From: Chiloscyllium plagiosum
Taxonomy: Eukaryota
Direction of reading: 5' to 3'
NCBI RefSeq assembly: GCF_004010195.1
Contig: NC_057749.1
Coordinates: 8,247,451 to 8,311,450, forward strand
DNA: 64,000 nt
Every line of letters begins with the position of its first letter. Position 1 is the stretch's first letter. Made by a program: the position numbers and the translations under genes. This document shows, in pieces, positions 790 through 62,691 of this stretch. Below the pieces are notes generated by a model. It was not told where the DNA came from, did not search any database, and saw only the letters and a list, made by a program, of their open reading frames with translations.

Positions 790-1410
790 TTCCCCAAAAC
801 TAGTCCACCATCACAAGTCAGGTGTATGATGCTATATCACCCACTTGCTCCATATCATCCTGAACAATGCAGCCTGCTTTGTTCTGAGGAAGGGTCACTG
901 GACCCGAAACATTAACTCTGATTTCTCTTCACAGATGCTGCCAGACCTGCTGAGTTTTTCCAGCAACTTCTGTTCATGAAAGTAGCTTGCTTGATTGGCA
1001 CCACATTCACAAGCATCCATTCCCTCCATCACCAATGCTCAGTAGCAGCTGTGTGCCCTACTACAAGATGCACTGCAGAAATTCACCAAAGATCCTTCAA
1101 TAGCACCTTCCAAACCCACGACCACTTCCATCTCAAAGGACAAGGGAAGCAGATACATGGAAAGGCCATCACCTGGAAGTTCCACTCCCAGCCATTCACC
1201 ATCTTGAACTGGAAATATATTACCACTCCTTCATTGTCATTGGTTCAAAATCCTAGAGTTCCCTCTCTAGAAACACTGTAGGTCTACCTACAGTACATGG
1301 ACTGCAGCAATTCAAGAAGGCAGCTCATCACCATCTTCTCAAGGACAATTAGGGATGGGCAATAAATGCTGGCCCAGGTGGAGCCACCCACTCCACTCTG
1401 TGAGTGATTT
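790..1410 (+). mobile_element. CR1-type LINE 3' fragment (family B), interrupted by a Penelope-derived insert
   Basis: Matches other copies in the window (14815-15625, 53520-53930, 63075-63370), e.g. CTCAGTAGCAGC..GTGTG, AAGAAGGCAGCTCA.CACCA, GGGCAATAAATGCTGGCC. Confidence 0.75.
881..975 (+). mobile_element. Penelope-derived short element (family B) with minimal hammerhead motif
   Basis: GTT-CTGAGGA-A-GGGTC-ACTG-GACCC-GAAA-CA-TT-AAC followed by the CAGATGCTGCCAGACCTGCTGAG..TTCCAGCAA tail shared with other copies. Confidence 0.75.
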
Positions 1411-1964
1411 TTTTAAAGAAGTATGTAATCTTTGGCACAGTTTAGAAATTATAAAGGATATCGAGAAGGGACCAAGTGTGGTAACCATGGAAGTAATGTA
1501 TGCATTCAACCAAGAGAGTGACAGTGACTTCATCTTAGGTCAAGGAAATCATGGGCCAAGGTTTGGATTGACGATTGACTGAATTGGATTGAAACGTATC
1601 CTGAGTGATTTTGACAGAGTGCTTAAGGGAAGGATAATTCCTCTTACGGGAGGTCCTAGGCCTTGGAGCCACTGTTTAAAAATGAGGCAGGACATTTGGG
1701 CCCCAGAGAGAGAGTGAGTGCCTGAAAGTACCTTGGATGAGGTTGGCTCGGGATGCCTCAGCTCAACCACCTCCAAGTGCAGGCAATTAAACCGAGTCTT
1801 ATCAATATTTAAGAAGGGCAACTGGGATTTGCAGAAATTAATTCCAACACAATGGGAACTGTTAATTGGTGATAGGCTTCCAGGATTGGCCAGGGTGCCA
1901 GACAGGACTATGGATGTTCTGTGCCTGAACGTGAATGAAGTCAAAGAACATCCTGTGAAGGAAT

Positions 1965-2360
1965 TACATACATACACACACACACACACATACCACCACC
2001 ACCACCATGCAATACACCATCCACACATTACAGACACACATACAATACTCAGACATAGCACATACACACACACATGCATACAACACATAGACATTGACAC
2101 AGACACACATAACACACAAACACAAAACATATGCAGACACACACCAGACATATGCGCACACAAACAAGATATAGATACACGCATTACACACACACACAAG
2201 CATAACAGACACAGGCACACGCACTCAAGACATAGACACATAAACACGCACAGACACAACATGTACATACACTCAGACACAATACACAGACACTCATATA
2301 CACCAAAAAACACACACATGGAAACACTCACAGCATGCACATACACATGACACTCACACA
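1965..2360. repeat. Degenerate (CA)n-rich simple repeat
   Basis: Direct reading; explains the His/Thr- and Cys/Val-rich ORFs here. Confidence 0.95.
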
Positions 2361-3257
2361 ACTGTCTTCTCTATTTGATTATTTTTTATTGTAAGAAGGC
2401 CAAGTAGGTCTATTCATTGTAACACAGCCACTCAATCACCTTGCCTTACTGCCCCTGTGTGCTGCTCTCAATCTGAGAGTCCTCTAACTTCCTCCAGACC
2501 AGAGAACCCTCCTGGTACCAATGGCTGCGCATGGAACTCCTCTCCCTGCTAAGGTCAAAACTTGTAATTCAACAGAATAGGTTGGAGACATGGAACATGT
2601 TTTGGCTTATGTCTCAAACCCCTCCCCCACAAATGTGTCTCTTAAGGAGCTCCTCCTGCTTTGATCAATTTCGTCTTGGCAAAAGCAGCTACCTGAACCG
2701 AACTGAATTGAAGTAGAGCTCGCCACCTTAAATGGGAATGTAACTGAGAGAGAATTGATATTTGTATTCATTATAGCATATGGAAAATCTCCACAGTGTG
2801 GCAATGGTGGATTTTTGCATTAAAAAAATAACCTCATCATTACTTTTTCCTATGCTTGACTGGCTAGGTCGCAAGTGCATTGTAGCTTGTTTCATGCCCT
2901 GAAAGACCTGTTTTAAAATCAATATCTCATATGTGTGAGAGGAGAGACTGACGTCTTGGGCTATGCATAGAAAAACAGCCCAGATGTGCGACAATATTAT
3001 TGAAATATTAATGGCTTATTGATCAAATTGGAGCTGAGTACACAAATGGAGAACAGCGCACTTCACCAGTGAGGTGAAATTACTATATTGTCCAAGCTCC
3101 ACTAGATCTATACTCAGTCGATATTGTTCTAAATAACTGTCCCCAAGGCAAAACTCTGTGCTTCATGCTGGTCATACTTTTGTATTCAAAAACATAAGAT
3201 AGTAGGGATTGACATTTGGGAAGAATAAATAGTTTTACTTGGAAAGTGAACCTTGTC

Positions 3258-3575
3258 ACAGTGGCCTAGTAGTATTATCACTGGGCTATTAATCCATGGA
3301 CCCAACTAATGCTTTGAGGACCCAGATTCAAATCCCACCACTGCAGATGATGGAATTGGAATTTAAGAAAAGTCTGGAATTAAGAGTCTAATGATGAACA
3401 CAAATCCATTGCTGATTGTTTGGAAAAACACATCTAATTGACTAATTCCCTTTAAGGAAGGGAGCTACCATTCTTATCTAGTCTGGTTTTTAACTGACTC
3501 CAGACCCACAGCAGCATGGTTGACTTTTAACTGTCTTTGGGCAATTAGGGCTGAGTGATAAGTGCTGGCTTCTTC
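3258..3575 (+). mobile_element. tRNA-derived SINE, second family (related copies ~23095-23390 +, ~48450-48690 +, ~52130-52460 -)
   Basis: A-box-like TGGCCTAGTAG, B-box-like GATTCAAATCCC, shared GACTCCAGACCCACAGCA..TGGTTGACT core and CR1-like tail. Confidence 0.65.
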
Positions 3576-3748
3576 TCGTGAATAAGCAAAAGAAAAGCTG
3601 GTGTAAGGTTTGTGTGGAGTGTTGTTGGTGTGGTTTAGTATAACAGAAGGGTGTTTAATCAGCTTCAACAAACATTATCAGTTACCAGGGAATAATAAAA
3701 TACACTCTGAATAGTAACCACAATGGGAAATTGGGAACTACTTCAGAA

Positions 3749-4081: not shown

Positions 4082-4089
4082 CGCCAACA

Positions 4090-6350: not shown

Positions 6351-6469
6351 AATAACACAGAGTTGTTGAGAATTAGGGAGAAAATTCCAGAGCTTAGGGC
6401 TATTGAATATTTCCTGTATCTCAGAGCAATGAAATGCCCTTCGTTATGAAGTGAGCAACAGTTTTAGTG

Positions 6470-6692
6470 ACAAAAAGGATGGCACTGGAAAAACAAAGCA
6501 GGTCAGACAGCATCTGAGGAGCAGGAGGGCGATGTTTTGGGCATAAGCCCTTCATCAGGTCATTCCTGATGAAGGGGTCATGCCCAAAATGTCGATTCTG
6601 CTGCTCCTCAGATGCTGCCTGACCTGCTTTGTTTTTCCAGCACCACACATTTTGACTCTGATCTCCAGTATCTGCAGTACTCACTTTCTCCT
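6470..6692. mobile_element. Inverted pair of Penelope-derived family-A elements
   Basis: ~85-bp arms centred on CTTCATCAGG-TCATT-CCTGATGAAG; flanked by AACAGTTTTAGT / AACAGTATTAGT. Confidence 0.8.
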
Positions 6693-8019
6693 AACAGTAT
6701 TAGTAAAATGAATTTTAAAATACCTTCGCTGTCACAAAATGTTCGTTGCTCTTCATTTTCTCATAGCTTTTGCGGAGCCTGTTTTCTTTGCTCAGAATCC
6801 ACACCCAGATATAGCCAATCAAGTACAGAGAGCTACTCTCATTGTCAAAAAGAGTGCAATTGAATATTATTGACAGGTGAAGATGCAACATCATATGGCA
6901 GAGTGGTGAAAATCTGAATTAATGGAAAGCAAAGATCACAGGGATAATAAGAATGGAGGAGATGATATAGTTAGGGAAGGAGGTGAGGCCATGAAGGGAT
7001 TTGGAGATATAGCTGAGAATTCTAAAATGGAATTGTTTTCTGCTCTGCCCTCAGCACTGCGTTGTGGCCATTACTACACTTTCTCCTTTGACAATTCAAC
7101 TCTTTCTGAATTTGTCAGAAAGATGGTTGAAAATGCGACACAAAGTCAATGCTCAGGCATTTCCATCTTGTACCACTTGCTATCTCTTAATTTTTAATCA
7201 CTCGATGATGGCCTAGATGACCTTCCATCTTAAATATCACGTGTCGGAATATTTTATATCACCACTTGACAGTAGATGGTGACAAGCACATGTTAATTTC
7301 TCTTGGGGATTTTCTATTCAATGCAAATACTGTCCCAGCAAGCCTGCATAATAATAATAAAGTATTCTCTCTACATATTTTACGTGGATCACAAAGTTTC
7401 ATAATATTTTCAGATTCACTAAAATCTAATGAGTCACTTCCAAACTACAGTCCCTCAAGGGTTCATTATTGGTGATGTAATCTTATTTGAGTTCAGCACG
7501 CAGTTGGCTAGGATCGATTAAGCATATCAGGGAAAATTATCCTTACCCCAACACGTTAAGTGTTCATTACTGAGTGCATATTTCAAGCTTCCTATCAACA
7601 TAAAAGTCACATTTTACATTTTACAACAATATGCGAACCTTTTTTGCAATTACATCAGATTATTCAGAGAAGTATGCTTTTTTTATGGTTGTTATCTTGT
7701 TGGTTCACCTTCCAGCAATCCAAAATTACAGCTAATGCTAGTGTCAAGAACAGCTATAAGCTGCATTCGAAAAGCAATCATAATGAGAAATTGACCTGCA
7801 GGTGTTCACTTCTCAAATAGATAAAGAACTTGCATTTATTTAGCACCACTCACAATCTCAAAGCTGATCCCAAAGCTCTCCGCACACCCAGAATGTTGGC
7901 CCTAAGTGTAGCCACTATTGCAATGTAGGAAGTCAATTTGCTCACAGGAAGCTCGCAATGAAAACTAATGGCCAGATAATCTGTTTAATGAGGTAGCAAG
8001 TTCCACTTAATACCGAATC

Positions 8020-9800: not shown

Positions 9801-10149
9801 CAAATCTGTTAAGTATGACTGTTCTTTGGAACCTTTTACAGCGAACTGAAGAATTGGATTTGAAATGTTAAAACTACTTCTCTCTCGACAGATGCTATCA
9901 GGTGCTGAATTCTTCCAACAATTTCTATGTTTAACTCAGATCTCCAGCACCCAAAGTATTTTGCATTTTCTTCTGTTTGTGTAACTTGGGTTGTGTAACT
10001 GAGTTTGAGCTTATTAAAAGATGCAAGTGGAAGACTATTACACATTATCATATCTATTTTATATTGTGACATGCTATTATTATGAAAGAAAGCCATTATG
10101 AAGAAGACACTGTAACTCTCCCTCTAACATAATGCTTTCTAAATTGTTT

Positions 10150-10350: not shown

Positions 10351-10744
10351 ACCATGGACAGTAAAGGACCACGTTGTATTTCGTATGTTAATGCTGTTCC
10401 CACACATTCCGAAGTATTGCAGTGTGATCAACTAGTACATCATTTTTGGAGTTGCGAAATGGCATGGTGTAACCATGCACAGAGACTTGATAAAAGAACG
10501 TAGTATAGGCATTTGAGATCTCTGGTTATGTTCTACTAGTGCGCTCGCAACACTGTACCCTAGAACTGGCTCACTCCAACATAAAAGAGATCAGCTAACC
10601 AAGGAGAAATCCTTCATTTTTGGTGGTGGTATGTATAATATCAATATATTAAGTTTACAGCACAGACGTTGACCCTTTGTCTTCAAATACAGAAATAGCT
10701 AGAAAAACTCATCAGGTCTGGCCACACCTGAGGAGAGAGAAACA

Positions 10745-11045
10745 GAGTCCAAAACTAAAGGACATAGGTTTAAGGTGAGAGGAGAAAGATTTAAAAGGGA
10801 CCTGAGAAGTAACTTTCTCATGCAGAGGGTGGTGCGTGTATGGAATGAGCTGCCAGAGGAAGTGGTGGAGGCTAGTACAAATACAATATTTAAAAGGCAT
10901 CTGGATGGGTATATGAATAGAAACGGTTTAGAGGGATATGGGCCAAATTGTGGCAAATGGAACTACATCAGTTTAAGATATCTGGTCAGCATGGACAAGT
11001 TGGACCGAAGGGTCTGTTTCCGTGCTGTACCTCTCTATGACTCCA
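10745..11045 (+). mobile_element. HER1/CR1 LINE 3' end
   Basis: RGERFKRDLRSNFLMQRVVRVWNELPEEVVEA, the CR1 ORF2 C-terminus, plus 3' UTR. Confidence 0.9.
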
Positions 11046-11584
11046 TCTCCTTTTTCTCTATCTCTGTCTTCTGACACTTGCTCTGCTCCTTTGCCCCTGG
11101 TTGCCTCTTGCTGCCTGTCGCTGTCCCAGGCTTTCTGCGATCTTTCTGCACTTGCCTGTGACTTTCTCTCCCACTCTGCCAGAGTTCCTTTCTTTCTGTT
11201 TGTTCACCTCTAAGTCTCTTTGTATGGCTGTCACACTCTTTGCACATTGCAGTGTCTATCTCAAGGAGATTTTGGAAATCAATCCTTTTCTTGAAACAAA
11301 CAAGAAGCCTTTTTATTTTCTTTAATTCAGGTAAATTAAATCCGATCTGAAGCAGACAGCTGTAGTGGAAGCAGTGAGAGCTGGAGCATGAATAAGATAA
11401 TGTGATAACCGAAAAGCGACCAGATCTACATAATCATCTGCAATGCTGGAAAAAAACAGTCTATCAGAAATAAACCTGATTTACATATCATTGTTCAACT
11501 GCCACTTCAAGCAGAGGCTACTGAAGATAATGATTTTGCAAAGCAGTTTATGCAATATGTTAGTACAAAGAGGAAAATATAGAA

Positions 11585-11832
11585 TAAAAATAGAAATTGC
11601 TGGAGAAACTCAGCAAGTCCTGTTGCATCTGTGGAGAGAGAAAGCAGAGTTAACGTTTGGAGTCCAGTCACCCTTCTTCAGAATCTTGTTCGATGTTCTA
11701 AAGTAATAAACCATTGAACTGAAGCATTAACTCTGTTTCTCTCTCTGTGAATGCTGGCAGAGTTGCTGAGTTTCTCCAGCAATTTCTCTGTTTATTTTAA
11801 ATTTCCTGAACCTGCAGTTCTTTGTTTTCTTT
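11585..11832. mobile_element. Inverted pair of Penelope-derived family-B elements
   Basis: AGAAATTGCTGGAGAAACTCAGCAA ... TTGCTGAGTTTCTCCAGCAATTTCT arms with decayed hammerhead cores toward the centre. Confidence 0.75.
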
Positions 11833-12089: not shown

Positions 12090-12695
12090 GTTAGAATCAT
12101 AGAATCTCTACAGTGCAGATAGAGATCACTCATGTCATGGAGTCTGCACAAACCCTCCGAAAAGCATCCCACCCAGACCCATCTCAACCCCGTATCCTAA
12201 CCCACCCAGCCAGCACATTCCTGGACACTGTGGGCAATTTAGATTAGATTAGATTACTTACAGCGTGGAAACAGGCCCTTCGGGCCAACAAGTTCACACC
12301 GACCCGCAACCCACCCAGACCCATTCCCCTACACCTAACACTATGGGCAATTTAGCATGGCCAATTCATCTAACCTGCACATCTTTGGACTGTGGGAGGA
12401 AACCGGAGCACCTGGGGGAAACGCACGCAGACACGGGGAGAACGTGCAAACTCCACACAGACTGTCGCCAGGGGTGGGAATTGAACCCAGGTCCCTGGCG
12501 CTGTGAGGCAACAGTACTAACCACTGTGCCACTGTGCCACCCACGGCCAATGACTGTGGGAGGAAACCAGGGCACTCAGATGCCCACATAGCCACAGGGA
12601 GAACCTCCACAAGGATAGTTACCCGATGCTGGAATCGAACCCAGGTCCCTGGTACTACAGGGAGGCAGTGCTAACTACTGAGCCACTGCACTGCC
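12090..12695 (-). mobile_element. Nested HE1 SINEs (younger copy 12242-12545 inside an older copy)
   Basis: (GATTA)n tail at 12242; older copy's tail lies at 12090-12240 and its head at 12550-12695. Confidence 0.85.
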
Positions 12696-13647: not shown

Positions 13648-13651
13648 TAAC

Positions 13652-13760
<109 letters not shown>

Positions 13761-13767
13761 GAAAAAA

Positions 13768-14287
13768 ATTGGCATTGGAGGAGGCCCAGGACCTGCATGT
13801 CATTGGCAGAGTGGGAGGGGGAGTTGAAGTGGTCGTCCACAGGGACAAATCCTAGCCACCTGATGTCTAGATGAAGAATGCCTCATCTTCCTCCTGAGGA
13901 CCATCCAACCACATGGAATCAATGTCGATTTCACCAGATTCCTCATCTCCCTTTCCCCCACCTCAACCTAAATCCAACCTTCCAACTCAGCACCACCATC
14001 TTGAACTGTCCTACCTGTCCATCTTTCTTCCCACTTATCCGCTCCACCCTATCATCATCACCCACCACCTTCATCTACCTGCCGCATTCCAAGCTACCAT
14101 TCCCCCCAGCCCCACCTCCCGCTTCTACTTATCTCTCAGCCCCCTTGCCCCTCCCCCACATTCCTGATAAAGGGCTTATGCTTGAAACGTTGACTCTCCT
14201 GCTCCTCAGATGCTGCCTGACCGGCTGTGCTTTCCAAGTGCCACATTTTGACTCTGATCTCCAGCTTCTGCAGTCTTCACTTTCTCT
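13768..14287 (+). mobile_element. Penelope-like element 3' end (ORF C-terminus, C-rich UTR, family-A hammerhead repeat) with an apparently inverted 5' piece
   Basis: 13872-13945 reads EECLIFLLRTIQPHGINVDFTRF (PLE terminal 'LIFxLGTLxPxGxN' motif), followed by CCTGATAAAGGGCTTATGCTTGAAACGTTGA and the family-A tail. Confidence 0.8.
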
Positions 14288-14497
14288 TTTAAGGTTCTCA
14301 GCCAGTTATAGTTGTATCATGCTCTTACTTAACTTGGACATAGCAACTGCAACATTTGCAATGTGTTTGTGAAGTGCATTGGGAAGGTTTATTGTAATGA
14401 AAGCAATATATACATTTGTACATGATAATACCTTCATTTTTCTGAGCATGTGAGTCATTTGCTCATCTTCTCTCACTTACGAATATACTCCATTATA

Positions 14498-14778
14498 GTG
14501 AGTTTGGAGAAAATTGAAGTTTTGGGTGTAGGTTTGCTCGCTGAACAGGAAGGTTCATTTCCAGATGTTTCGTTACTCTACTAGGTAATATCTTCAGTGG
14601 GCCTCAGGCAAAGCAATGCTGAAAATTTCTGCTTTCTATTTATATGTTTGGGTTTCTTTGAATAGAAAAGCAGAATTTTCAGCATTGCTTCACCTGATGT
14701 CCACTGAAGATGTTACCTAGTAGAGTAACGAAACGTCTGGAAATGAACCTTCCTGCTCAGCGAGCAAACCTACATCCA
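14498..14778. mobile_element. Palindromic Penelope-derived element (family D) with 13-bp target-site duplication
   Basis: ~120-bp inverted arms; ATACTCCATTATA at 14485-14497 and 14779-14791. Confidence 0.85.
14700..14741 (+). ncRNA. Minimal type-I hammerhead ribozyme, intact core
   Basis: TCCA-CTGAAGA-T-GTTAC-CTAGTAGA-GTAAC-GAAA-CG-TC/TGGA; helix I TCCA:TGGA, helix II 5 bp, ACGT palindrome, GUC triplet. Confidence 0.8.
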
Positions 14779-14814
14779 ATACTCCATTATACAATGATAT
14801 TAATTGAAAATAAA

Positions 14815-18890: not shown

Positions 18891-18964
18891 GAACATAAAA
18901 TTAAGGATGTCATCCTTCAGTTATACAAGACATTGATGAGACATCAAATGCTGTGCGTAGTTTT

Positions 18965-23522: not shown

Positions 23523-23614
23523 CTGAAAATGTGTTGCTGGAAAAGCGCAGCAGGTCAGGCAGCATCCAAGGAACAGGAGAATCAACGTTTCAGGCATAAG
23601 CCCTTCTTCAGGAT
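23523..23614 (-). mobile_element. Penelope-derived family-A element with hammerhead core
   Basis: Minus: TC-CTGAAGA-A-GGGC-TTAT-GCCT-GAAA-CG-TT-GA; CTTGTTGTG duplicated at 23514-23522 and 23615-23623. Confidence 0.8.
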
Positions 23615-28247: not shown

Positions 28248-28970
28248 ATAGATTCATAGGATCATACAGATGCTTCAGTCTAACTTGTCCATGCTAAACA
28301 GATATCCTAAATTAATCTAGTCCCATTTGGTCCATATCCTTCCAAATGCTTTCTATTCACGTACCCATTCAGATGCCTTTTAAATGCTGTAATTGTACTA
28401 GCCTCCACCACTCCCTCTGGCAGCTTAATCCATACACACACTACCCTCCGCATGAAAAAGTTGCTCCTTAGGTTTCTTTTTATATCTTTCCCCCTTCACC
28501 TTAGAGCTATTCTCTCGAGATTTGGACTCCCCTACTCTGGGGAAAATACTTTGACGTGTCAGCCTATCCATGCCCCTCATGATTTGATAAACCTCTATAA
28601 GGTCACCTCTTGTCCTCCGATGCTCCAGGGAAAATAGCCCCAGCCTATTCAGCCTCTCCCTATACCTGAAATAATCCAAGCCTGGCAATACACTTGTAAA
28701 TCTTTTCTGTATCCTTTCAAGTTTAACATCTTTCTTGTAGCAGGGAGACCAGAACTGAATGCAGTATTCCAAGAGTGGCCTAACCAATGTCCTGGAGAAA
28801 GTGAGGACTGCAGATGCTGGCGATCAGAGCTGAAAATGTGTTGCTAGAAAAGCACAGCAGGTCAGGCAGCATCCAAGGAGCAGGAGTTTCGGGCATGAGC
28901 CCTTCTTCAGGAATGTCCTGTACCGTCAAAACATGAACTCCCAACTCCTATACTCAATGCACTGACCACA
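28248..28970 (-). mobile_element. HER1/CR1 LINE 3' fragment with Penelope-derived insert at 28795-28911
   Basis: VRPLLEYCIQFWSP..RLNRLGLFSLEHRRTRGDLIEVY; insert flanked by AATGTCCTG (28786-28794, 28912-28920). Confidence 0.9.
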
Positions 28971-29754
28971 TTGAGTAAGAGACTGGAGAGAAGTCTATCA
29001 AAGTCAAAGAGTGAATGAGGCAGATTGAAGAGTAATAAAGACAGTCAGGGAAAGATTGAAGACAATGATAACTGATAGAAATAAAAATACGTTATCTTAG
29101 GAATGATCAACATCAGCAAAAACGAGAATGTTGAGCATTAAGAAACAAATTGACAGGAAAATCAAAGGTGCTAAGATTGGAGGAGACAATCAAAATCAAG
29201 AAAGTTAACAAGTTTTAACTTTTCAGCCTGTTCACATTCATTGGTTTGATAAAACTCACTTTCACAACCACATCTTCTTCCTTAATGACTGACACTGGTT
29301 CTGGTTTACTCCACATGTATTCTAACTGATGTTCACTCCTTTGTGTTTCAAACCCACCCAAGATTACAGGTATCTCTGAAACAAACAACGTTGCTCAGAC
29401 AGCTGTTCCCACTGCATCCTGAATCCCAGAATCAGTGCTAAGATCCACCACATGCACACTCTCAAGCTCTTTCTCCAGCAACACTGCCTCACATTATCTC
29501 AGAGCTGCCCTGGTTCCCAGTTCCATTTAATTTTCATCTCATTCGATGTCCAATCTAGAAACTGTTTCTCCTCCTTTAAAGTGTTGGGGGAGTTCTGAAC
29601 TAGCGCCTTTGGACTTGAAAACTTAAATCGGCCTGTCTCTCTCTCTCTTTCTCTCTCCATGGATGCTACCCGACCTGTTGAGTTTCGCCAACATTTTTTT
29701 TGCTTTCATTTCAGGTTTCCAGCATCTGCGGCATTTTATTTATAATCATGATCA

Positions 29755-31942: not shown

Positions 31943-32585
31943 AGAGTTATATAGCACGGAAAGAGACCCATCAGTCAAACCAGTCCATGCCAAACATACT
32001 GGAGATAGTAAGAACTGCAGATGCTAGAGTCCGATTGGATAGAGATGAGCTAGAAAAAGCACAGCAAGTCGAGCAACATCAGAGGAGAGGAGTCAATGTT
32101 TCAGGTCAGAATCTCATCAGGACTGAAGGAAGATTCTGACCTGAAATGTCAACACACTTCCTCCTCTGCTGCTGCTCGACCTGCTGTGCTTTTTCCAGCT
32201 AAATTCTCTATCCTCGCCAAACATAATCCCAAACTAATCCAGTCCCACCTGCCTGCCCCTGGCCCATATTCCTCTGAACATTTCATATTCATGTACTTTT
32301 CCAAATATCTTTTAAATGTTGTAATTTATACCCACAACCATCTCTTTCTCAGGAAGTTAATTTCACACACGAACCACTGTCTGTGCCCCTCACGTATTTT
32401 TTAAATCTCTCCCCTTTCATCTTAAAAATGTGCCCCCAATCTTTAAATCCCCCATCCTAGGGAAAGGACGACTACCATTAATCCCTCATCATTTTATTAA
32501 CTTATATAAGGTCAGCCCTCAACCTCCTACGCTCCAGAGAAAATAGTCCCAGCTTATACGGGCTTTCCTTGTAACTCAAACCATG
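31943..32585 (-). mobile_element. HER1/CR1 3' fragment containing an inverted Penelope-derived pair (~32000-32214)
   Basis: LGLFSLERRRLRADLI; insert flanked by GCCAAACATA on both sides. Confidence 0.8.
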
Positions 32586-32945
32586 AACATGGTTCAGATC
32601 TGTTGAGTTCACAGCTTTGTTTCCTTGCCATAATTCTGTGACACACAGAGGTTCAGACAGCATGATAGAGAGACAAGCTGCATCTTCTCTTTTAACACCT
32701 CTCTCCTCAGTATCTGAGGTCCTAGATGCTCCTAGCAGGTAGAAAAGTGGTTTACATGCACTTTGTTTAATGCAGTGGAGTACTACCACTCTAGGTGTAC
32801 AAGAGTTTTGTAGGGCATCTCCTCTCCAGCCTCAAGAATGACTCGAAGATTCCAGTCACCTGACAGTTCAATCCTCCATGTTGCTCAGACTCTGACCTCA
32901 CTGTCCTTGGATTGCTTCTGTGCTCCAATGAAACTCAAAAAATAA

Positions 32946-33244: not shown

Positions 33245-33580
33245 TAGGATGAGGTGCTTTTCTTTGCAACATTGAGCTCAATTTCCAGAATGGAACTCTG
33301 TCAACATGTTGTTTTTTACTATTTATGTGTTATTTTTGATTTTAATGTCTTTTCTTTATGCTTTTGGACAACAGCCAATCCTTTTAGCCTTGTACCACCC
33401 TATTCCCATTGAAGCTTTCCTGGCTTCTACCAATCACTGATGCCCCCCCCCCCTCCCCTTTTGTTCTTTATCAAACCCTCCCCCATCTGAGTTGTGTAAA
33501 ACCCGTGACATTCCTAAACTTTCCTAGCTCTGGTGAGAGGTGATCGATCTAAAGCATTAAATCTGCTTCTCTCTCCCTAA

Positions 33581-33678
33581 TTAAGAATCACACAACACCA
33601 GGTTATAGTCCAACAGGTGTTGTGTGATTCTTAACTTTGCCCACCCCAGTCCAACACTGGCACCTCAACATCATCATC
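33581..33678. mobile_element. Penelope-derived family-C hairpin fragment nested in a decayed family-B element
   Basis: Perfect 19-bp stem TTAAGAATCACACAACACC / GGTGTTGTGTGATTCTTAA, CCCCAGTCCAACAC tail, CTCTCC on both sides. Confidence 0.7.
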
Positions 33679-34834
33679 GCTCTCCATACTTTCTACCTGA
33701 CATTCAGAGCACTTACAAAATTTTCTCCTTTGATAAACACAGCGACAAATACAGATACAGATACAAATTCTAAGACCTGATTCCATTGATACAGGAAGCA
33801 GCAGAGGGGGAGTCATAGGTGCAGGAAGTTACATTGGAAATGCGCTCCATGCAATATTTGGGGCATTGTTAAACCACATCAGTGAATGTAATTGCTAAGG
33901 TACAAATTGGATATGCAGGTGAGACTGGAAGAGCTATCACCTGGAGTCACAATTTTAATCTAGTTTAACTTAAATTTTGGAATAATTACTCGGCTTAGAC
34001 GAATATTATCTTAAACTGCAGGATGTGACCTTTATTTCAATACAGTGGGAAATTAAAAGTACTCATTTAATATTCAGCCCTCAGGATTTCTCAGTAAGGA
34101 GTGAATTTTGGCACGTTGCTTCACACGTTTTCTTCTTGAAGTTGCTACGCTGATTCATCGAAAAAAACCCAGACACAATTCTAGGGCTTTAGTTTTAAGC
34201 TTGTTCTCAAAGTTAATGACTAATTGGAAAACTTCACTTAAAAAAATCTACCAAGAAATGATGATTTGTGAGGTTGGTTTGAACCCCACTGCATATATTT
34301 TTCTCAATTCTTTTTTAGAAAATCGATACTGTTTATTAGTTCGCTAACCGCTCCTCACTCTGAGCTAACTAGCCCATGTCTGAAGTCAAAGATTAAATCT
34401 TGCCATTTTCCAATTAAATTGCTCATGCAGATAAAGGGGAGAAAGCTATATAATTGATTGTACTGTTGAATTATGCCTCTGGTACTTTGTCAGTACACCT
34501 TTAGCCTGTGTCATAATTGCCATGTGACCTGTTGGCAAAAGGATCTTAACCCACATCATAAAATCATGTGGTTCAGAAAAGGCCACACAGTCCAAGTCTA
34601 CACTATCAAAAACTTCATTGCTACCTACACTGTCCCATTTGCCCACACTAGGCCCACAGTCTTCAACGTTATGATGCCTCAAGGGCCAACCAAGTAGTTT
34701 TTAAAAGTTTTGAAGTTTTCCATATCAACTACCCTCCCAGGCAAGGCATTTCAGACAACCCATCATTCTCTGGGTGAAAAGGTTTTACCTCAACTCCTCA
34801 CAAACCCTCCTTCATTCTAAAAGTAAAGAAAAAT

Positions 34835-35260
34835 GGGGTGGCGTGGTGGCTCAGTGGTTAGCAATGCTGCCTCACAGTGCCAGGGACCCAGGTTCTATTG
34901 CATCTTCGGGTGACTGTCTGTGTGGAGTTTGCCCATTCTCTGCGTGGATTTCCTCCACGTGCTCCGCTTTCCTCCTACAGTCCAAAGTTGAGCAGGTTAG
35001 GTGAATTAGCCACGCTATAGTGTTCAGGGATGTGTAAGTTAGGTGCATTGGGGTCAAGATTAGAGTGGTGCTGGAAAAGCACAGCAGGTAAGGAAGCATC
35101 TGAGGAGCAGGAAAATCGATGTTTTGGGCAAAAGTCCTTCATCAGGAATGAGTCTGGGTAAATATAGGATGGGGGAATGGGTCTGGGTAAGTTACTGTTT
35201 GGAGGCTCGGTGGGGACCTGTTGGGCCAAAGGGCCTGTTTCCACACTGTAGGGACTCTAG
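34835..35260 (+). mobile_element. HE1 SINE containing a minus-strand Penelope family-A insert (~35053-35150), itself within a CR1 fragment
   Basis: HE1 motifs resume after the insert. Confidence 0.85.
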
Positions 35261-38100: not shown

Positions 38101-38119
38101 TAAATAGATGGAGATTTAT

Positions 38120-38600: not shown

Positions 38601-39321
38601 ACAGAAGAAATGGAAACAAATTCTGAAGAAAGTTCCCATTAGAAATTCTGATGCTGCCTCAGAAAACCATTGTTTAGCTCAAACAAAAGTGACTCAGCTT
38701 TCTTACTCAGCTCCGACACCCATCGTGAAAGATGATGAACAAGGTGTATGCTTTGAACTGAAACTCAGCAATGCTGCAACGACTTTGCATTGTGTTTACT
38801 AAATAAGTAAAATTAAAAAGAGAGGTGAAGTCAAACTGAGCAATTATAACAGCACTGAAACAGTTGTGTTTTTTCTTTGAAGAGAATGAGTGATAATTTC
38901 ACTGCCCAGTGGAGGGATCATTTTATGCCACAGACAATTAACAGCAAACAAACATGTGTGAATTCTCTGGTGATTGGTGGCACAATGTATTAAGATGCTG
39001 CAAATGGTGAATCCTTATATCTGTTTTATATTTAAAAGTTAAACAGTGATAAAGCAGTTGAACAAGTCATTATGATCAGAGCTGCTCCTTGGAAACATGG
39101 CAGCTTATGGCCAAAAATTCCTAACTCACTATTTCCCTTCTGTTGCTCGGCTGTCCAGAAAAATCTCAAACTAACATCTGCAGGCTGCAAAGGAAGGATG
39201 AGGTGAAAGTGGATGGGCAACATTCACCCAATTCCCGCCAAATTATCTTCCTGAATAAATGTCTCAAGGCTGGTTGCCAACCCTGTTCTTCTCAGCTAAG
39301 GCACCGCCCTGCTTGAAAAGA

Positions 39322-42173: not shown

Positions 42174-43090
42174 TGTTGCTCAGTAACCACCCTCAACAAC
42201 AGTTATTGGCCAAAGAGGGAAAGAGTCAAGACTATCAACAAAATAATCAACTTTATTGGTTAGTTGAAATAGACATACAATTCACACCGTTTAGTTAACA
42301 AAGGGTTATAATTCACACAAGACTAAACTCTATGCGCACGCCCACTAGGTTTCTCAGATGTTCCCTGAACAGTAACAGAGTATAAAGGCTAATACTCAGG
42401 AATAGGAGTTCACGCTGGCCAGGTGATCCTCGGGCCCTCAATGTAGTTTCCACGTTTCCAACGTAGATTCCTCCAATTCAGCGAAGGTTTACCTCTGGAG
42501 TTTTCACTTGCTGCACGCCCTAAGTCCGTCATTTTTATCCTTTTTCCTTATCTTCTCAACTGTGGTGTCTTACATCTGCCGAGCCTGTGTCTTTTCATTA
42601 TAGGTTCTGGCCCAAGACGCTGGAAGCATTACTCTTCAACTAAATAAGGATTTGTATCTTATGTCACTTGCTTTGATTTCCTCTGAGCCAACTCAGTTCC
42701 AGCTGGTTCCATCCAACACAAGCCAGTGGATCTGGTCCTCGGGCTACTGAGATAACAAGCTGCTTCTTTTATATGTGATGATGAGGAGGGGCCGGTGTTG
42801 GACTGGGGTGGACAACGTTAAAAATCACACAACACCAGGTTATAGTCCAACAGGTTTATTTGGAAGCACAAGCTTTTGGAGTGCTCCTCCTTTATCAGGT
42901 AGCCCTACCAAATAAACCTGTTGGACCATAACCTGGTGCAGTGCAATTTTTAACATTTATATGTGATCAGTCCCTGGCCAACAATCCAACATTGTGAATT
43001 TGCCAGTCCACACCAAAATGTAAATAACAACAAAAATCAACATCTGAGGGCAAAAAGCGCGTATCCGCGATCTTTAACCTATTTTTAACA
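42174..43090. mobile_element. Possible solo LTR containing a Penelope insert
   Basis: TGTT...AACA ends with ATCC/ATCT flanks; no second copy in the window to confirm. Confidence 0.3.
42780..42955 (-). mobile_element. Penelope-derived family-C element with inverted partial copy
   Basis: TTTATATGTGAT duplicated at 42768-42779 and 42956-42967; decayed hammerhead core on minus strand. Confidence 0.8.
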
Positions 43091-43212
43091 ATCTCCGCAC
43101 TCGCAAGTAACATCATTCGCGGAGTTCTCAGGGACAGAGCTCTCATGGGTACAGAGGAATGACTGCAGATAATCTGTTCCTTGTGCTCTTTGCTTCAATT
43201 TAAATTTCCACA

Positions 43213-43329
43213 ATCACCTGATGAGGGAGCAGCTCTCCAAAAGCTAGTGCTTCCAAATAAACCTGTTGGACTATAACCTGTGATTTTTAACCTTGTACAT
43301 CCCAGTCCAACATTGGTGTCTCCAAATCA
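43213..43329 (+). mobile_element. Penelope-derived family-C element with hammerhead motif
   Basis: CAC-CTGATGA-G-GGAG-CAGCT-CTCC-AAAA-GC-TA-GTG (G of GAAA lost at a CpG). Confidence 0.8.
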
Positions 43330-43432
43330 ATTTAAACTGTTACAGAATTACAAGTGATAGATTCTTAAAATCATAGGAAGTCACAGTGTAGAGTGAATCC
43401 ATTTAATCCACCATTCCAGCCCCAACATTTTA

Positions 43433-43685
43433 AAAGGGCTTATGCCCTTCCTGAAGAAGGGCTTATGCCCGAAACGTCGATTCTCCTGTTCCTTGGATGC
43501 TGCCTGACCTGCTGCGCTTTTCCAGCAACACATTTTCAGCTCTGATCTCCAGCATCTGCAGCCCTCACTTTCTCTCCAACATTTTAGAACCCTGATGGAG
43601 AGTCCTGGCCCAAAATATCGATTGCCTTGCTCCTCTGATGCTGTCTGACCTGCTGTGCTTTTCCAGCCCCACATGTTAATGACTT
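43433..43685 (+). mobile_element. Two tandem family-A Penelope-derived elements; first has an intact hammerhead core (43449-43480)
   Basis: TC-CTGAAGA-A-GGGC-TTAT-GCCC-GAAA-CG-TC-GA; first copy flanked by CCAACATTTTA. Confidence 0.85.
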
Positions 43686-44703: not shown

Positions 44704-44892
44704 AAGCAAACATTACAGCCGGAATCTCTACTGAAAATAAAAAAAACGCTGGAGATCACAGTAGGTCGGGCAGCATCCATGGAGAGAGAACAAGATAATT
44801 TTTAGAGTCTAGATGACTTTTCATCAGAGCTGAAGAAGAGTTATCTAGACTCGAAACATTAGCTTGCTCTCTCTCTCCATGGATGCTGCCGA
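44704..44892. mobile_element. Inverted pair of Penelope-derived family-B-like elements
   Basis: GGCAGCATCCATGGAGAGAGA / TCTCTCTCCATGGATGCTGCC arms; AAATG(T/C)AAATTTAG on both sides. Confidence 0.8.
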
Positions 44893-49289: not shown

Positions 49290-49758
49290 CAAAGTTTGGG
49301 AGAAGATTGTGGGGCTTCCCACAACCACCCCAACACACACAAAAGAAGTTGCATCAAGACACTGTTCAAAAGGGCCACAACATACTGCAGTACACCAGAA
49401 CTGCAAAAAGAGGAAGAAGAATACAATGTATTCGCCAAAAACTGATACCCCCGCAATTTCATCAACAGATGCCTAAGGCAAAGACAACGGAATGAGGACA
49501 TGCCACAACCCAAAGGACTAGCCACACTACCATACATCAAAAACATTTCTGAACTGACAGCCAGACTACTGAGACCACTAGGACTCATAACAGCACACAA
49601 ACAACAGCCACTCTCAGACAACAACTCACCAGGACGAAGGACCCGATACCCAGCATGAGCAAAACCAATGTAGTGTACAAAATCCCATGCAAGGACTGCA
49701 CAAAACACTACATAGGACAAACAGGAAGACAGCTAACGATCCACATCCATGAACACCA
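49290..49758 (+). pseudogene. Penelope-like retrotransposon ORF fragment: RT thumb/linker into GIY-YIG endonuclease, disrupted
   Basis: HPNTHKRSCIKTLFKRA..., LATLPYIKNISELTARLLR..., NVVYKIPCKDCTKHYIGQTGRQLTIHIHEH; stop/frameshifts present; runs into a gap. Confidence 0.92.
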
Positions 49759-51715: not shown

Positions 51716-51902
51716 AGAAGTCACATGACGCCAGGTAAGAGTCCAGCACGTTAATTTGAAATCACAAGCTTTCAGAGCGCTGGTGAAATGAAGCAGCGCT
51801 CTGAACGCTTGTGATTTCAAATAAACCTGTTTGACTATAATCTAGTGTGGTGTGACTGCTGACTTTGTCCACCCCAGTCCAACACTGGCACCTCAACATT
51901 GT
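51716..51902. mobile_element. Inverted pair of Penelope-derived family-C elements
   Basis: ATTTGAAATCACAAGCTTTCAGAGCGCTG / CAGCGCTCTGAACGCTTGTGATTTCAAAT arms. Confidence 0.8.
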
Positions 51903-52469
51903 GGTCAGGTAATTGGTCTTTAGAATGGAATGATAAACCATTTAACGTCAAGATCCTATAACCCTCATTTGTAGAAGAACTGGAGAGTTCCACTGATCAA
52001 GGCATTCTGTCAAACTCTGTTTTGAAAGAATAGATTGAAATGCATCAAACCACCAGAGCTTCACCCAACAGGACAGCACCATATTCATTTCCACGCTGTG
52101 CATGGGAGCTTGCTGTGCTTTTTGAAAATTCATTCATTGGATGTGGGCATCATTGACTAAGCTAACGTTCATTGTCTCCCTAATTGCCCCTTTAATCGAG
52201 TGGCTTGCTGGGCCTTTTCAGAGGGCAGTTATGAGTCAATCGCATTGCTGTGGGTCTGAAGTCACATGGAGTACAGACCAGGTAAGGATGGCAGATTTAC
52301 TTCTTTAAAGTGCAATAGAAAATTAGGTGAGTATTTTCAACAATTCTTACACGAGTGATTTTAGACTTTTGCTTTTAGTTCTAATTTTTTTTACTGGAGT
52401 TTGCATTTCACCATCTGCCATGATGACTTTTAAACCTATGCCATCAGAACATCAGCCTGGACTCACATG

Positions 52470-53930: not shown

Positions 53931-54054
53931 CTCGTGCTTCAGGACAATTTGATAAAGACCTCAAGAAATGAAAGTGCTTTGAAGTTGGCACCTTCCCATA
54001 ATCAACTGTGCATTCAGTGGCCTACAAGCAACAATGAAGGATTTCAGCATCATC

Positions 54055-54834: not shown

Positions 54835-54907
54835 ATTTCCCACCCAGGATTGAACTGAGGACCTTTCACATGTGAGGCAAACATGATAACCACTACACTA
54901 CAGAAAC
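54835..54907 (-). tRNA. tRNA-Val(CAC), probable pseudogene/retrocopy
   Basis: Minus strand GTTTCTGTAGTGTAGTGGTTATCATGTTTGCCTCACATGTGAAAGGTCCTCAGTTCAATCCTGGGTGGGAAAT; matches vertebrate tRNA-Val except mostly CpG transitions; anticodon CAC at 54874-54872; 1:72 pair broken. Confidence 0.85.
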
Positions 54908-60079: not shown

Positions 60080-60279
60080 TCCCTTATCTGCCATTTAAGG
60101 GGAACCGTCTTAAACTGTGCTGGGCAGCTTCAGATTGCCAGCACCTGACCAGGTACGTAGCTATCTTTTAAAGACAATCCTGGGGTGTTCTACACATGGG
60201 GAGTGGGATAAACAGGCTAGCACTGGACAAGCAGGGTCCTAGATCTGCATCTCACATGAAGGGTTAACATAAGAGGAGA

Positions 60280-60655
60280 CCCTATAGAGATTTTCAAAAT
60301 CATGAGGTGACTGGACAGAGTAGACAGGGAAAGGTATTCCCGCTTGTGAAAGGAACATGAATGAGAGGAACAGAGGTTTAAAGTGATCTGCAAAAGAGGC
60401 AGGGGTGGAGTGAGGAGTTGCCTTTTCACATGGCGACTCGTGAGGTCTGGAATGAGCTGCCTGGAAGCATGATGGGGGCAGCTTCAATTGAGGCATCCAA
60501 GAGGGAACTGGATGATCATTTGGATCAAATAAAACGCAAGGGTGTTGGCCAAAAAAAAACAGAAATTGGCACGAGGTATTGATGTTCGTTTAATGAGCTG
60601 GTGCACTCATGATGGACCAAATGGCCTCCTTCTGATCCATAACACTTCTGTGATT
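60280..60655 (+). mobile_element. CR1 LINE 3' fragment
   Basis: GAGACCCTATAGAGATTTTCAAAATCATGAGG (GDPIEIFKIMR) and TGGAATGAGCTGCCT (WNELP). Confidence 0.8.
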
Positions 60656-60774
60656 TTGTAGTTCCATGAGGTTTTGAATGATAGAGTGAGGAAGTGCATT
60701 AGGCCTTGTGGAGATAGACCCTCATGAAACATGACAAAAATGACATTCACCGAATTCTGGTTAGTCTCGGCCCT

Positions 60775-61146
60775 TTGGGTAGCATGGTGGCTCAGTAATT
60801 AGCACTGCTCCCTCACAGTGCCAGGGACCTGGATTCCATTCCACCCTAGGCGACTGTCTGTGTGGAGTTTGCACAGTCTCCCCTGGGTCTATATGGGTTT
60901 TCTCCGGATGCTCCAGTTTCCTCCCACAGTCCAAAGATGTACAGTTTAGGAGCATTGGCCGTGCTAAATTGCCCTTAGTGTCCAGGGATGTGTAGGCTAT
61001 GTACATTACCCATGAGAAATGCAGGGCTTCAGGGATAGATGGGAGGTTTGGTCTGGGCAGGATGCCCTTCAGAGGGTCAGTGCGGACTCATTAGGCCGAA
61101 TGGCCTGTTTCCATGCTGTAGGGATTCTATTCTATTCTATGATTCT
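60775..61146 (+). mobile_element. HE1-type SINE with (TTCTA)n tail
   Basis: Head/core/tail motifs. Confidence 0.9.
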
Positions 61147-62489
61147 AAATGTGAGATCAGGCGAGCTCAAATAACTAATCATTCAGATCTCATAATCATC
61201 CCTGATCATATCAGGAACTTCATTTGAATTGTAAGAAACATTTGGAACTGAAAATGCACATTTCCCACCAATATAGAGCTGACTGTAAGTTGTCTCTGGT
61301 AAGTAATTAGCTTCTGTCTGTTACAACGCTGACTGCAAATAAGTTTGAAAAAAAAAATCAATATCCTGTCTCCAGGCAGGGGAATCATAAAACAACTCAA
61401 ATAAAACTAAAAATCACTTGATAAAAGGTAACGAGGCAGTGAGTTTGAACAGTAACCACACAATTCCGATTAGGGAGACAATAGTGAATATTGTTGAGTC
61501 ACAGGTCTTTCGCTAAAGGATCTGATGGAGAAACCACTGAGTTATTGTGAGGTGTTCACTGAGGTTTATTAAGTTTTACTCTTACCCCTGAGCTAGCATG
61601 TTGACATTGAAGTACCACTCTAGAGACTGGGATACTCTCAGGGCAACACTACAGTGTGTAAATAAAGGAGTGCTACATTATTGGAGGTGCCTACATTTCA
61701 AATGAGACATTCAACTAAAGTCCCTGCCTCCTCCCTCAGGTTGAGGTAACCCCTTACCCCATGGTGCTAAAATAAAATGAACAATTGTCAAGAAGTGAAA
61801 CAAAAGCTGGAATTAGGTCGTAGATTCGTTCGCCGAGCTGGTGTGTTTTTCTGCAGATATTTTGACAACTGTCTAGGTGACATCGTCAGTGCATCTTCAA
61901 TAAAGTGCTGGTGTCTACGTGCCTCGGTTTTTTAGTACTTCCAGTTCTGTATCTGAGTGATTTCTTTACCCTGAAAACAGGAACTCCTGGAGAAACTTTA
62001 CTGAGATCTGGCAGCACCCATGGAGAGAAAAGCGAGTTAACATTTCAAGGGAAGTAACTTTTCTTCAGAATGGGTCCCATGGCATGACTCTTTCCTCTTT
62101 GAAGGTTGTGAGTTTTTGAAATTCCCTTCCTCAAAATGCAGTGAATGTAGCATCTTGAAATATATTTCAAGATTGAGGTAGGTGGATTCTTGATTACCAA
62201 GTGGATGAAAGACTATTGGAAACAAGCAGGGGTATTGAGCTGAGCTTAAAATCAGATCATTCATGATCTTATTGATGTCAGGAAGGGGGGGTCAAATGGG
62301 CTGAAGGGCCTACCCTTGTTCCTTGTTTGTATGTACTGTTTGAAAGGTATTGTCCAAATTCATTCCATCAATTCTCATCACGAAAGAAATAGATTATCCA
62401 ATCATTAAATCATTGCTGCATTGGGAAGATGCTCAGATCAATTGTTTGGTAGTGTGTCATTCCAGCACAGTTTCATGAAATGGAAACTG

Positions 62490-62691
62490 CTGGTGCTGTA
62501 AATCAGAAACAAAAACAGAAGTTTGCTGGAAAAGCTCAGCACGTCTGGTGGCATCTGTGGAGAGACATCAGAGTCAACGCTTCGGATCCATTTCTGATCA
62601 AGGGCCACTGAACCCGAAACATTGATTCTGATTTCTCTTCGCAGACGTTGCCAGACTTGCTGAGCTTTTCCAGCAATTTCTGTTTTTGCTC
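62490..62691. mobile_element. Inverted pair of Penelope-derived family-B elements
   Basis: TTGCTGGAAAAGCTCAGCA / TGCTGAGCTTTTCCAGCAA arms; decayed core CTGATCA-A-GGGCC-ACTG-AACCC-GAAA. Confidence 0.8.

Follow-up and report, generated by a model that had tools for sequence, protein, structure and literature searches.

Why does one stretch of a shark genome hold so many short repeats that look like hammerhead ribozymes, and how did they come to be inserted? The window analysed here, to which all counts refer, is 64 kb of Chiloscyllium plagiosum (contig NC_057749.1), with 62.4 kb of non-N sequence and three N gaps. An initial annotation, made from the letters alone, had listed about 20 inserts in at least four families and read them as ribozyme-delimited elements derived from Penelope. 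We located copies by self-BLAST with five seeds, by direct reading and by alignment, and found members of repeat families at 20 of the 20 places. This confirms that dispersed end-pieces of Penelope-like elements with minimal hammerheads are present in the window, and the interpretation offered at the outset is, overall, supported. We conclude that the copies are very probably the 3′-terminal modules of endonuclease-positive Penelope-like retrotransposons of at least three lineages, with relatives in whale shark and zebra shark.

The same searches define families A, B, E, X, C and D, and a D-related copy at 61815-61935. Because families A, B, E and X have a 3′ body in common (GATGCTGCC.GACCTGCTG..TTTTCCAGCA), they form one lineage of which they are sub-families, and the primary sequences of families C and D are unrelated to it. 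E and X can be added to the families first listed, but A, B and E belong together and about three unrelated lineages remain (A/B/E/X, C and D). Further members lie at 10689-10748, 33585-33690 (a nested family C twin), 38616-38665 and 43590-43677, and remnants of open reading frames (ORFs) that had likewise escaped the first list lie at 13772-13846, 32685-32941 and 49505-49756. Summed over the feature list, modules and ORF remnants occupy about 4.3 kb, or about 7% of the non-N bases. In annotation, these families are best labelled as fragments of Penelope-like elements and not as new short interspersed nuclear elements (SINEs) or miniature inverted-repeat transposable elements (MITEs).

Each module consists of a minimal type I hammerhead and a body of about 55-60 nt after the predicted cut site, which puts the short end about 90 nt from C3; some copies have a further tail of 30-40 nt. 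The hammerhead runs helix I, CUGANGA, one extra base, helix II, GAAA, a 4-base palindrome, U-H and helix I. The layout first proposed (helix I-CTGANGA-N-helix II-GAAA-NN-TH-helix I) holds both under a strict descriptor and in a position-by-position parse of 17 arms, made with our own scripts. Parsing also showed that the helices had been read correctly, with helix I as TC:GA (A), GTT:AAC (B), CAC:GTG (C) and TCCA:TGGA (D) and helix II as GGGC/GCCC, GGGTC/GACCC, GGAG/CTCC and GTTAC/GTAAC, and it bore out the palindrome, ACGT or AGCT, that stands in place of helix III. Family E adds helix I AGC(T):(A)GCT with helix II GAGTC/GACTC, and family X is a degenerate relative of B and E whose helix II cannot be folded. 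Helix I has 3-4 bp in families B, E, C and D and in the D-related copy.

A descriptor search had been suggested as a check, and we ran one on the window. Our strict descriptor asked for the core, allowed a single base after A9 and set minima of 4 bp for helix II, 3 nt for its loop and 2 bp for helix I; GAAA, ANNT and H had to follow helix II in that order. It matched four times, at 881-916 on the plus strand (family B), 14700-14741 plus (D), 23580-23615 minus (A) and 43449-43480 plus (A). Across 1000 dinucleotide-preserving shuffles the mean was 0.006 matches and the maximum 1, and none of the 1000 reached 4, so that a chance origin of the motif is rejected. The loose core pattern CTGANGA-N6-30-GAAA matched 16 times, against 6.2 ± 2.4 in shuffles. 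By the strict descriptor only 4 of the 26 hammerhead-bearing arms are intact, the rest having decayed mostly at CpG sites.

The 17 parsed arms show which positions have been kept. CTGA is present in all 17 and the full CTGANGA in 13; A13-A14 and both A15.1 and U16.1 are present in every arm, and H17 is never G (U in 9, C in 7 and A in 1). A single unpaired base (A in 14, U in 2, G in 1) separates A9 from 10.1 throughout, and the G10.1-C11.1 closing pair occurs in the best copy of every family. The catalytic core is complete in 7 of the 17 arms, which span families A, B, E and D; family C lacks only G12, lost at a CpG. This G12, which follows C11.1, reads A in six arms, and the CG at the centre of the palindrome reads CA or TG in eight. 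The palindrome itself is ACGT in five arms, AGCT in two, one of the CpG decay products ACAT or ATGT in eight and something else in the remaining two.

The initial annotation had proposed covariation as a check. In a tool alignment of families A, B and E (14 arms, with a structure that we specified), 77.9% of cells are paired and the covariation score is 0.363, compared with 0.265 ± 0.036 after shuffling; 1 of 500 shuffles reaches it, and sliding the 3′ partners by 1-3 columns lowers it to 0.02-0.20. Both-sided changes are seen in five of the eight pairs, and in three of the five pairs of helix II. As MAFFT was unable to align C and D in register, the pair counts for five families come from our own parse. 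Within its own family, helix II forms 3.59 of 4 pairs, compared with 2.29 across families (214 combinations), and helix I forms 2.29 of 3 pairs, compared with 1.24. When one representative each of A, B, E, C and D is taken, 34 of the 35 helix pairs form with the arm's own partner strand. Among the 120 permutations of the 3′ strands only the identity reaches 34, and derangements average 16.75, which shows that helices I and II covary between families. In the helix II matrix of these representatives the diagonal is 4 throughout, and other values of 4 occur only among the related B, A and E. The D-related copy has one helix I pair altered on both sides (TGCA:TGCA, as against TCCA:TGGA in D).

We next consider what joins these modules to Penelope-like elements. 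For family A the link is an ORF, as had been proposed: the frame at 13864-13968 matches the end of a whale shark protein with RVT_1 and GIY-YIG regions. A phmmer search of this 35-residue frame against 1.8 billion representative proteins returned one match, P0002 (E-value 9.3e-4, 67% identity), and P0002 as query led to seven longer proteins, including the uncharacterized P0003 of Rhincodon typus (469 aa) and P0005 of Stegostoma tigrinum (522 aa). P0003 scores 22.7 bits for RVT_1, below the Pfam cut-off of 29.6, and 23.2 bits for GIY-YIG, above the cut-off; P0005 has a GIY-YIG match only, below the cut-off. Judged from these domain matches, the order in P0003, reverse transcriptase (RT) and then GIY-YIG, is the one that defines endonuclease-positive Penelope-like elements. 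In pairwise alignment, 13867-13968 is 62% identical to the last 34 residues of P0003, 426-459 (E 1e-11). By tblastn, 13855-14160 falls on P0005 residues 359-449 (E 6e-13), the match extending through the 3′ untranslated region (UTR) to four bases before the family A box (14164), while 13772-13846 (minus strand) falls on P0003 394-418 and 32685-32941 on P0003 330-424. The terminal residues of P0005, LMKGLRPKRQ, are those that the family A hammerhead encodes in that frame; as the match to 43439-43492 is weak (E 0.4), this is no more than a hint. The linker between RT and endonuclease in P0003 holds C-x4-C-x2-C, which Craig et al. 2021 (PMC8557442) assign as a motif to two clades, Neptune and Nematis. 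The linker suggests that the shark ORF resembles Neptune/Nematis rather than Penelope/Poseidon.

At 13772-14282, the minus-strand piece (residues 394-418) directly precedes, in the protein, the start of the plus-strand piece (residue 422). Because these residues lie inverted next to that start, the insertion resembles a single RNA inverted at its 5′ end, as happens in twin priming, and not a pair of copies of one 3′ end. The remnant at 49505-49756, which is 35-42% identical to the shark proteins, belongs to a third, more distant Penelope-like element whose 3′ end, with any hammerhead, is unassembled. Word-index protein searches with two short ORF pieces gave no match, and a Pfam scan of 148 of the 164 ORFs of at least 75 aa gave a single match above cut-off, an RVT_1 fragment at 18629-18916 (minus). 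We set this fragment aside as unrelated to the hammerhead elements. It is part of an RT remnant at 17884-18916 (minus), split by the N gap 17912-18165, whose FADDTK and LEYCVQFWSP motifs we take to indicate a long interspersed nuclear element (LINE) of the CR1/L2 type.

The arrangement of the copies bears on how they were inserted. Among 17 inverted repeats of at least 25 nt with arms within 400 nt of each other, 11 belong to hammerhead elements, and together with the nested family C twin at 33585-33690 they make up nine head-to-head twin insertions. The units had been described as solo and flanked by target-site duplications. Duplications are indeed present, with a score of at least 9 in 9 of 21 insertions compared with 2% of 2000 random pseudo-insertions (one mismatch allowed), but the nine twins are inverted pairs and not solo units. 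Five twins each lie inside a single duplication (6469-6692, 14498-14778, 31999-32215, 42780-42955 and 44704-44892) and so each arose in one event. In these five, one arm overhangs the other on the outside by 33, 17, 34, 34 and 61 nt, respectively; each of the four twins without a clear duplication has one arm that is longer relative to its family mates, with outer bounds that are less certain. Arms also occur singly with duplications of their own (23523, 28795, 43205 and 43433). Both the length of the duplications, 9 to 14 bp, and the inner junctions of the twins vary. Of the 3′ ends of family A, four lie at ...CACTTTCTC, three about 33-38 nt earlier at ...CACATTTT(CAG) and one in between.

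These features recall what has been described for Penelope-like elements, whose reported hallmarks are frequent 5′ truncation, an adjacent inverted 5′-truncated copy and a tail of 30-40 bp that is often one-sided (Craig et al. 2021, PMC8557442). In vitro work on Poseidon from Anolis shows that the protein cleaves AT-rich targets on both strands and extends both (Frangieh et al. 2024, PMC11167929). The element has two neighbouring internal start sites for reverse transcription, the stretch between them being the tail, and its hammerhead lies about 100 nt upstream of those sites (PMC11167929). Shark copies of every family, C and D included, fit this model of insertion. Twins inside single duplications with a tail on one arm are what it predicts if both strands are nicked and there are two internal starts, which makes the copies in the window a natural data set for Penelope-like insertion. 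By eye, ATT occurs in four of seven exact duplications, which is not clearly above chance, and we rejected it as a target preference. The 13-bp duplication of the family D twin (14779-14791) resembles the first 14 nt of the family D tail at about 10 of 14 positions, also by eye; this single case may reflect microhomology at the priming site.

From the published in vitro work on Poseidon we infer the following route. The RT-GIY-YIG protein would nick both strands of an AT-rich target, and reverse transcription would begin internally on the RNA, downstream of the hammerhead, at either of two neighbouring sites. Copying back would reach only the 5′ edge of the ribozyme. Priming from one strand would leave a solo copy, and priming from both would leave a head-to-head twin within one duplication, with the tail on one arm. 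In the master elements, two copies would pair through the ACGU or AGCU palindrome, and the ribozyme would then presumably cleave the transcript after H17, perhaps with the help of the element's protein. The initial annotation had left open whether the units are non-autonomous elements or extreme 5′ truncations. We prefer 5′-shortened ends to self-standing elements because of the inverted twins in one duplication, the one-sided tail and the neutral decay of the copies.

Arms of a twin are 72-92% complementary, most of them 78-88%, and pairwise identity in family A is 79% in the hammerhead (84% without CpG sites) compared with 82.5% in the body. As hammerhead and body are alike in this respect, the copies decay neutrally and are old. 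Selection on the ribozyme acts on master elements and not on the fragments. The inserted copies, which carry no ORF, are dead on arrival.

The 5′ ends of the copies are not spread as random truncation of a kilobase-scale RNA would have it. Upstream of C3, identity with family mates extends at most 6 nt in 8 family A arms and at most 4 nt in 13 B/E/X arms; with the long family A copy as reference, the seven short arms of this family stop at -1 to -6. The exceptions are the family D arms, which reach to about -40, one family C copy, which reaches to -13, and a few arms that are cut inside or past the ribozyme (in the 62490 twin the minus arm, in the 42780 twin the plus arm, and both arms at 51716 and at 33585). 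The term ribozyme-delimited is thus apt in that 5′ ends lie at the 5′ edge of the ribozyme, but no arm starts at the predicted cleavage site. Extra sequence at this edge, namely a 14-nt copy of helix II at 43433 and twin spacers of 2-10 nt, looks like the product of template jumps after run-off at the 5′ end of an RNA. Three candidates may explain the pile-up: the 5′ end of the RNA (a transcription start or a processing site), a polymerase stop at the folded or protein-bound ribozyme, and microhomology with the target. The pile-up, with no end at the cut site, is a clue to the role of the hammerhead in the life cycle, which is unsettled in the literature.

One tentative reading, which we consider possible but rather doubtful, is that the short units arose not by random truncation but by run-off copying of a small RNA with a discrete 5′ end, 1-6 nt upstream of the hammerhead. 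The ribozyme would then head a minimal template, some 90 or 125 nt long, produced by a transcription start in the pseudo-long terminal repeat (pseudo-LTR) or by processing, and the element protein would copy this template from one or both nicked target strands. As a hint in this direction, the sequence CCACATT at -8 to -2 of the long family A copy fits the initiator consensus YYANWYY. If this reading were true, the hammerhead-headed module would be the main thing amplified by Penelope-like elements in this shark lineage, and the work of the ribozyme would be done at the extreme 5′ end of the template, for example by shedding a capped leader, and not by cutting units out of tandem transcripts.

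Several observations weigh against the reading that we favour, both as to the ribozyme and as to the Penelope-like origin. Helix I of family A has 2 bp only. No Rfam hammerhead model matched in the window at the gathering score or at E ≤ 10 (13 matches, none of them a hammerhead), and minimum-energy folding yielded helices I and II together in two of five monomers; cofolding of homodimers gave extended duplexes rather than the catalytic fold, a result that is uninformative either way. Covariance model R1, for which A/B/E served as the basis, recovers the 14 arms used to build it together with those of X and misses C and D, so that ribozyme homology across lineages rests on the descriptor and our own parse. 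Families C and D show no ORF link in this window, and their one tie to Penelope-like elements is the insertion architecture. For families B and E, the E-like hammerhead at 33530 is preceded on its own strand, 590 nt upstream, by the ORF remnant 32685-32941, but an unrelated repeat separates the two and continuity could not be established. The pile-up of 5′ ends 0-6 nt upstream of C3 is unlike random truncation and is left unaccounted for by our explanation. Finally, in our reading of flanks and alignments the predicted cut site after H17 is not the start of any arm, so nothing in the window shows that the ribozyme ever cut.

The discrete 5′ ends are one reason to consider that the modules are instead a self-standing non-autonomous family, in which a short RNA that begins at the hammerhead, through its own promoter or through processing, is copied in trans by Penelope-like proteins in the manner of a SINE or a dispersed retrozyme. 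The copies would then not be left over from abortive copying of a full-length RNA. The extras that resemble template jumps after run-off would suit such an RNA, a short RNA around the junction of pseudo-LTR and ORF is reported to be a sufficient template in vitro (PMC11167929), and animal retrozymes have been argued to derive from Penelope-like pseudo-LTRs (Li, Clavereau and Pollet 2026 preprint). We nevertheless think this explanation unlikely. The longest family A copy runs unbroken from the end of the ORF into the module, which makes the module part of an autonomous element; the window holds no tandem arrays of the unit, and the copies decay neutrally. A promoter within a unit of 90-125 nt is an assumption of this explanation, and the 5′-end profile that speaks for it comes from one 64-kb window and not from the whole genome.

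It is less likely still that the motif is an element of the RNA that binds protein or stops the RT, and that it keeps a hammerhead-like shape without being a working ribozyme. Such a view draws on the reports that published minimal hammerheads cleave poorly in vitro (PMC4209133), that ribozyme mutants left in vitro insertion by the Anolis element unaffected and that no RNA-seq reads ended at its cut site (PMC11167929), and on the 2-bp helix I of family A and the absence of shark arms that start at the cut site. Set against this, the positions fixed across divergent lineages are the catalytic ones (C3-A6, G8, A9, G12-A14, A15.1, U16.1 and an H17 that is never G), and the Anolis motif is reported to cleave with protein and to respond to C3 and G8 mutants and to a compensatory double mutant (PMC11167929). 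That nine loci are inverted repeats flanked by duplications might also suggest DNA transposons of the foldback or MITE type, bounded by terminal inverted repeats and only incidentally like a hammerhead. We give this practically no credence and rejected it on these grounds: arms also occur singly with duplications of their own, arms of a pair differ on the outside by 17-61 nt, duplications range from 9 to 14 bp with variable inner junctions, and one type of arm runs into the end of an RT-type ORF.

The reading as 3′-terminal modules of Penelope-like elements also agrees with known systems. Minimal hammerheads in the pseudo-LTRs of Penelope-like elements have been reported in fishes, coelacanth, Xenopus and reptiles, and as dimers they are weakly active in vitro (Cervera and de la Pena 2014, PMC4209133). 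The initial annotation could not say whether such families had been described; on the evidence of that report, elements of this kind have. Like the published motifs (PMC4209133), those in the shark are of type I without a real helix III, are palindromic at 15.2-16.2, have an unpaired base between A9 and 10.1 and close helix II with G10.1-C11.1. In both cases there are several families per genome with many compensatory changes, and the motifs are mostly single and dispersed, as in truncated elements, with some opposite-strand pairs, 100-700 bp apart in the published account. The shark motifs differ in that helix II has 4-5 bp, compared with 7-8 bp in the Schistosoma families, and in the 2-bp helix I of family A, reported in that account only for Drosophila virilis; their twin arms are usually only 2-20 nt apart. 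Literature searches, which did not extend to supplements, found no paper on minimal hammerhead motifs in sharks, and Repbase or Dfam may already catalogue these families. Our data extend to a shark-type genome the known association between Penelope-like retroelements and minimal hammerheads of the dimer type.

With Poseidon of Anolis the shark copies have in common heavy 5′ truncation, an inverted partner, a one-sided tail of 30-40 bp and AT-rich targets (PMC11167929, PMC8557442). Nearly all of them stop within 6 nt of the 5′ edge of the ribozyme, a pattern that we did not see stated in the portions of those two papers at hand, and P0003 differs from Poseidon in its Neptune/Nematis-like linker. 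Non-LTR retrozymes are similarly short, non-coding type I hammerhead units related to Penelope-like pseudo-LTRs (de la Pena et al. 2020), but they are described as head-to-tail tandem arrays that give circular RNAs, whereas the shark copies are solo or inverted; one cartilaginous fish has been sampled for tandem retrozymes (Li, Clavereau and Pollet 2026 preprint). Among the Tandem Repeats Finder arrays in the window none is a head-to-tail array of the hammerhead unit, and the copies are therefore not retrozyme arrays. The one adjacent direct pair is formed by 43433 and 43590, and 43433 has its own duplication. About 20 nt at 43405-43432 resemble, by eye only, the 3′ end of family A, and would have preceded the 43590 copy before the 43433 insertion. 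Compared with the Rfam hammerheads (type I, type III, HH9 and HH10), the shark motifs have the same catalytic core and lack the canonical helix III and the loop-loop contacts.

Table 1. Penelope-like modules and ORF remnants in the window (positions of the window; arms are given by strand).
Feature	Coordinates	Strand	Hammerhead, ends and context	Duplication
Family B solo	881..975	+	Hammerhead 881-916, core intact, helix II 5 bp, helix I 3 bp; ACGT decayed to ACAT; short 3′ end	
Family A head-to-head twin	6469..6692		Minus arm 6469-6563 (short 3′ end), plus arm 6564-6692 (33-nt tail); 5 nt between the two CCTGATGA boxes	12 bp, 1 mismatch, 6457-6468 and 6693-6704
B-like degenerate solo	9845..9965	+	Helix II lost; tail present	
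Family B body remnant	10689..10748	-	No recognisable hammerhead	
Family B head-to-head twin	11575..11815 (bounds approximate)		Better hammerhead in minus arm (C3 at 11681); plus arm with decayed hammerhead and full tail	None found
Inverted Penelope-like ORF piece	13772..13846	-	P0003 residues 394-418, end of GIY-YIG region; head to head with 13855..14282; abuts (AGAA)n/(GATA)n microsatellite (13653-13768)	
Longest family A copy	13855..14282	+	ORF C-terminus 13855-13971, 3′ UTR, hammerhead 14160-14195 (G8 mutated), body and tail to 14282	
Family D head-to-head twin	14498..14778		Hammerheads 14560-14601 (-) and 14700-14741 (+, strict-intact); arms extend about 40 nt upstream of ribozyme; minus arm with at least 17 nt extra tail	Exact 13 bp, 14485-14497 and 14779-14791
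Family A solo	23523..23614	-	Hammerhead 23580-23615, strict-intact; short 3′ end	9-12 bp
Family A solo	28795..28911	-	Tail; 8-nt alignment gap in hammerhead after GAAA	Exact 9 bp, AATGTCCTG
B/E-like degenerate solo	29590..29745	+	CT-rich expansion; tail	
Family X twin	31999..32215		Minus arm tail 34 nt longer	Exact 10 bp, GCCAAACATA
Second Penelope-like ORF remnant	32685..32941	+	P0003 330-424 (GIY-YIG region), 38-44% identity, with stops; unrelated repeat cuts in at about 32945	
E-like hammerhead remnant and start of body	33526..33584	+	AGCT upstream of box in common with arm at 44827 (-); interrupted by nested twin 33585..33690	
Family C twin, nested	33585..33690		Both arms shortened downstream of hammerhead; tail on one arm	
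Family A solo	35053..35152	-	G12 and palindrome decayed at CpG; 3′ end between short and long	
B/E-like remnant, internal deletion	38616..38665	+	GATGCTGCC hallmark retained	
Family C twin	42780..42955		Minus arm with hammerhead 42866-42902 and 34-nt tail; plus arm starts about 9 nt past predicted cleavage site, short end	Exact 12 bp
Family C solo	43205..43326	+	Hammerhead 43214-43250 (G12 to A); tail	Exact 10 bp, TCAATTTAAA
Family A solo, best-kept hammerhead	43433..43575	+	Hammerhead 43449-43480; tail; 14-nt direct copy of helix II segment at 5′ end	11 bp, CCAACATTTTA
Family A copy	43590..43677	+	Hammerhead decayed; short 3′ end	
Family E twin	44704..44892		Boxes 2 nt apart; minus arm 61 nt longer outside	14 bp, 1 mismatch
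Third Penelope-like ORF remnant	49505..49756	+	GIY-YIG start, reads NVVYKIPCKDCTKHYIGQT; runs into N gap 49759-50544	
Family C twin	51716..51905		Junction inside hammerhead; plus arm carries tail	
D-related solo	61815..61935	-	Helix I TGCA:TGCA; helix II 3′ strand decayed	
B/E-type solo	61976..62072	-	Core intact; helix II 3 bp	
Family B twin	62490..62680		Hammerhead whole in plus arm (62590-62627, G8 mutated); minus arm begins within helix II and has the tail	

Some other features of the window deserve mention. The family D twin folds, over 14557-14739, into a long near-perfect hairpin that gives weak Rfam matches to microRNA precursors and small RNAs (E 0.01-0.6, all far below gathering score); we rejected a microRNA or small RNA identity, as these matches reflect only the long hairpin of the twin. 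If transcribed, twins of the D type would yield double-stranded RNA. An abundant repeat is present in both orientations at 12340-12670, 20260-20470 and 32945-33110, with the frame ...HCCLTAPGTWV.F....TVCVEFAHSP.VC.GF..., and its copy at 32945 interrupts the ORF remnant there. At 8505-8905, about 67 degenerate hexamers of the telomere type (GTTAGG, 75% matches) form an interstitial array, and a GC-rich minisatellite with a period of 24/48/143 bp (TCCATGCTGCTGGGCCCACTCCAG) lies at 36478-36913. A tRNA-like sequence at 54835-54907 on the minus strand (33.6 bits, compared with an Rfam gathering score of 29) probably represents either a tRNA pseudogene or the head of a SINE derived from a tRNA.

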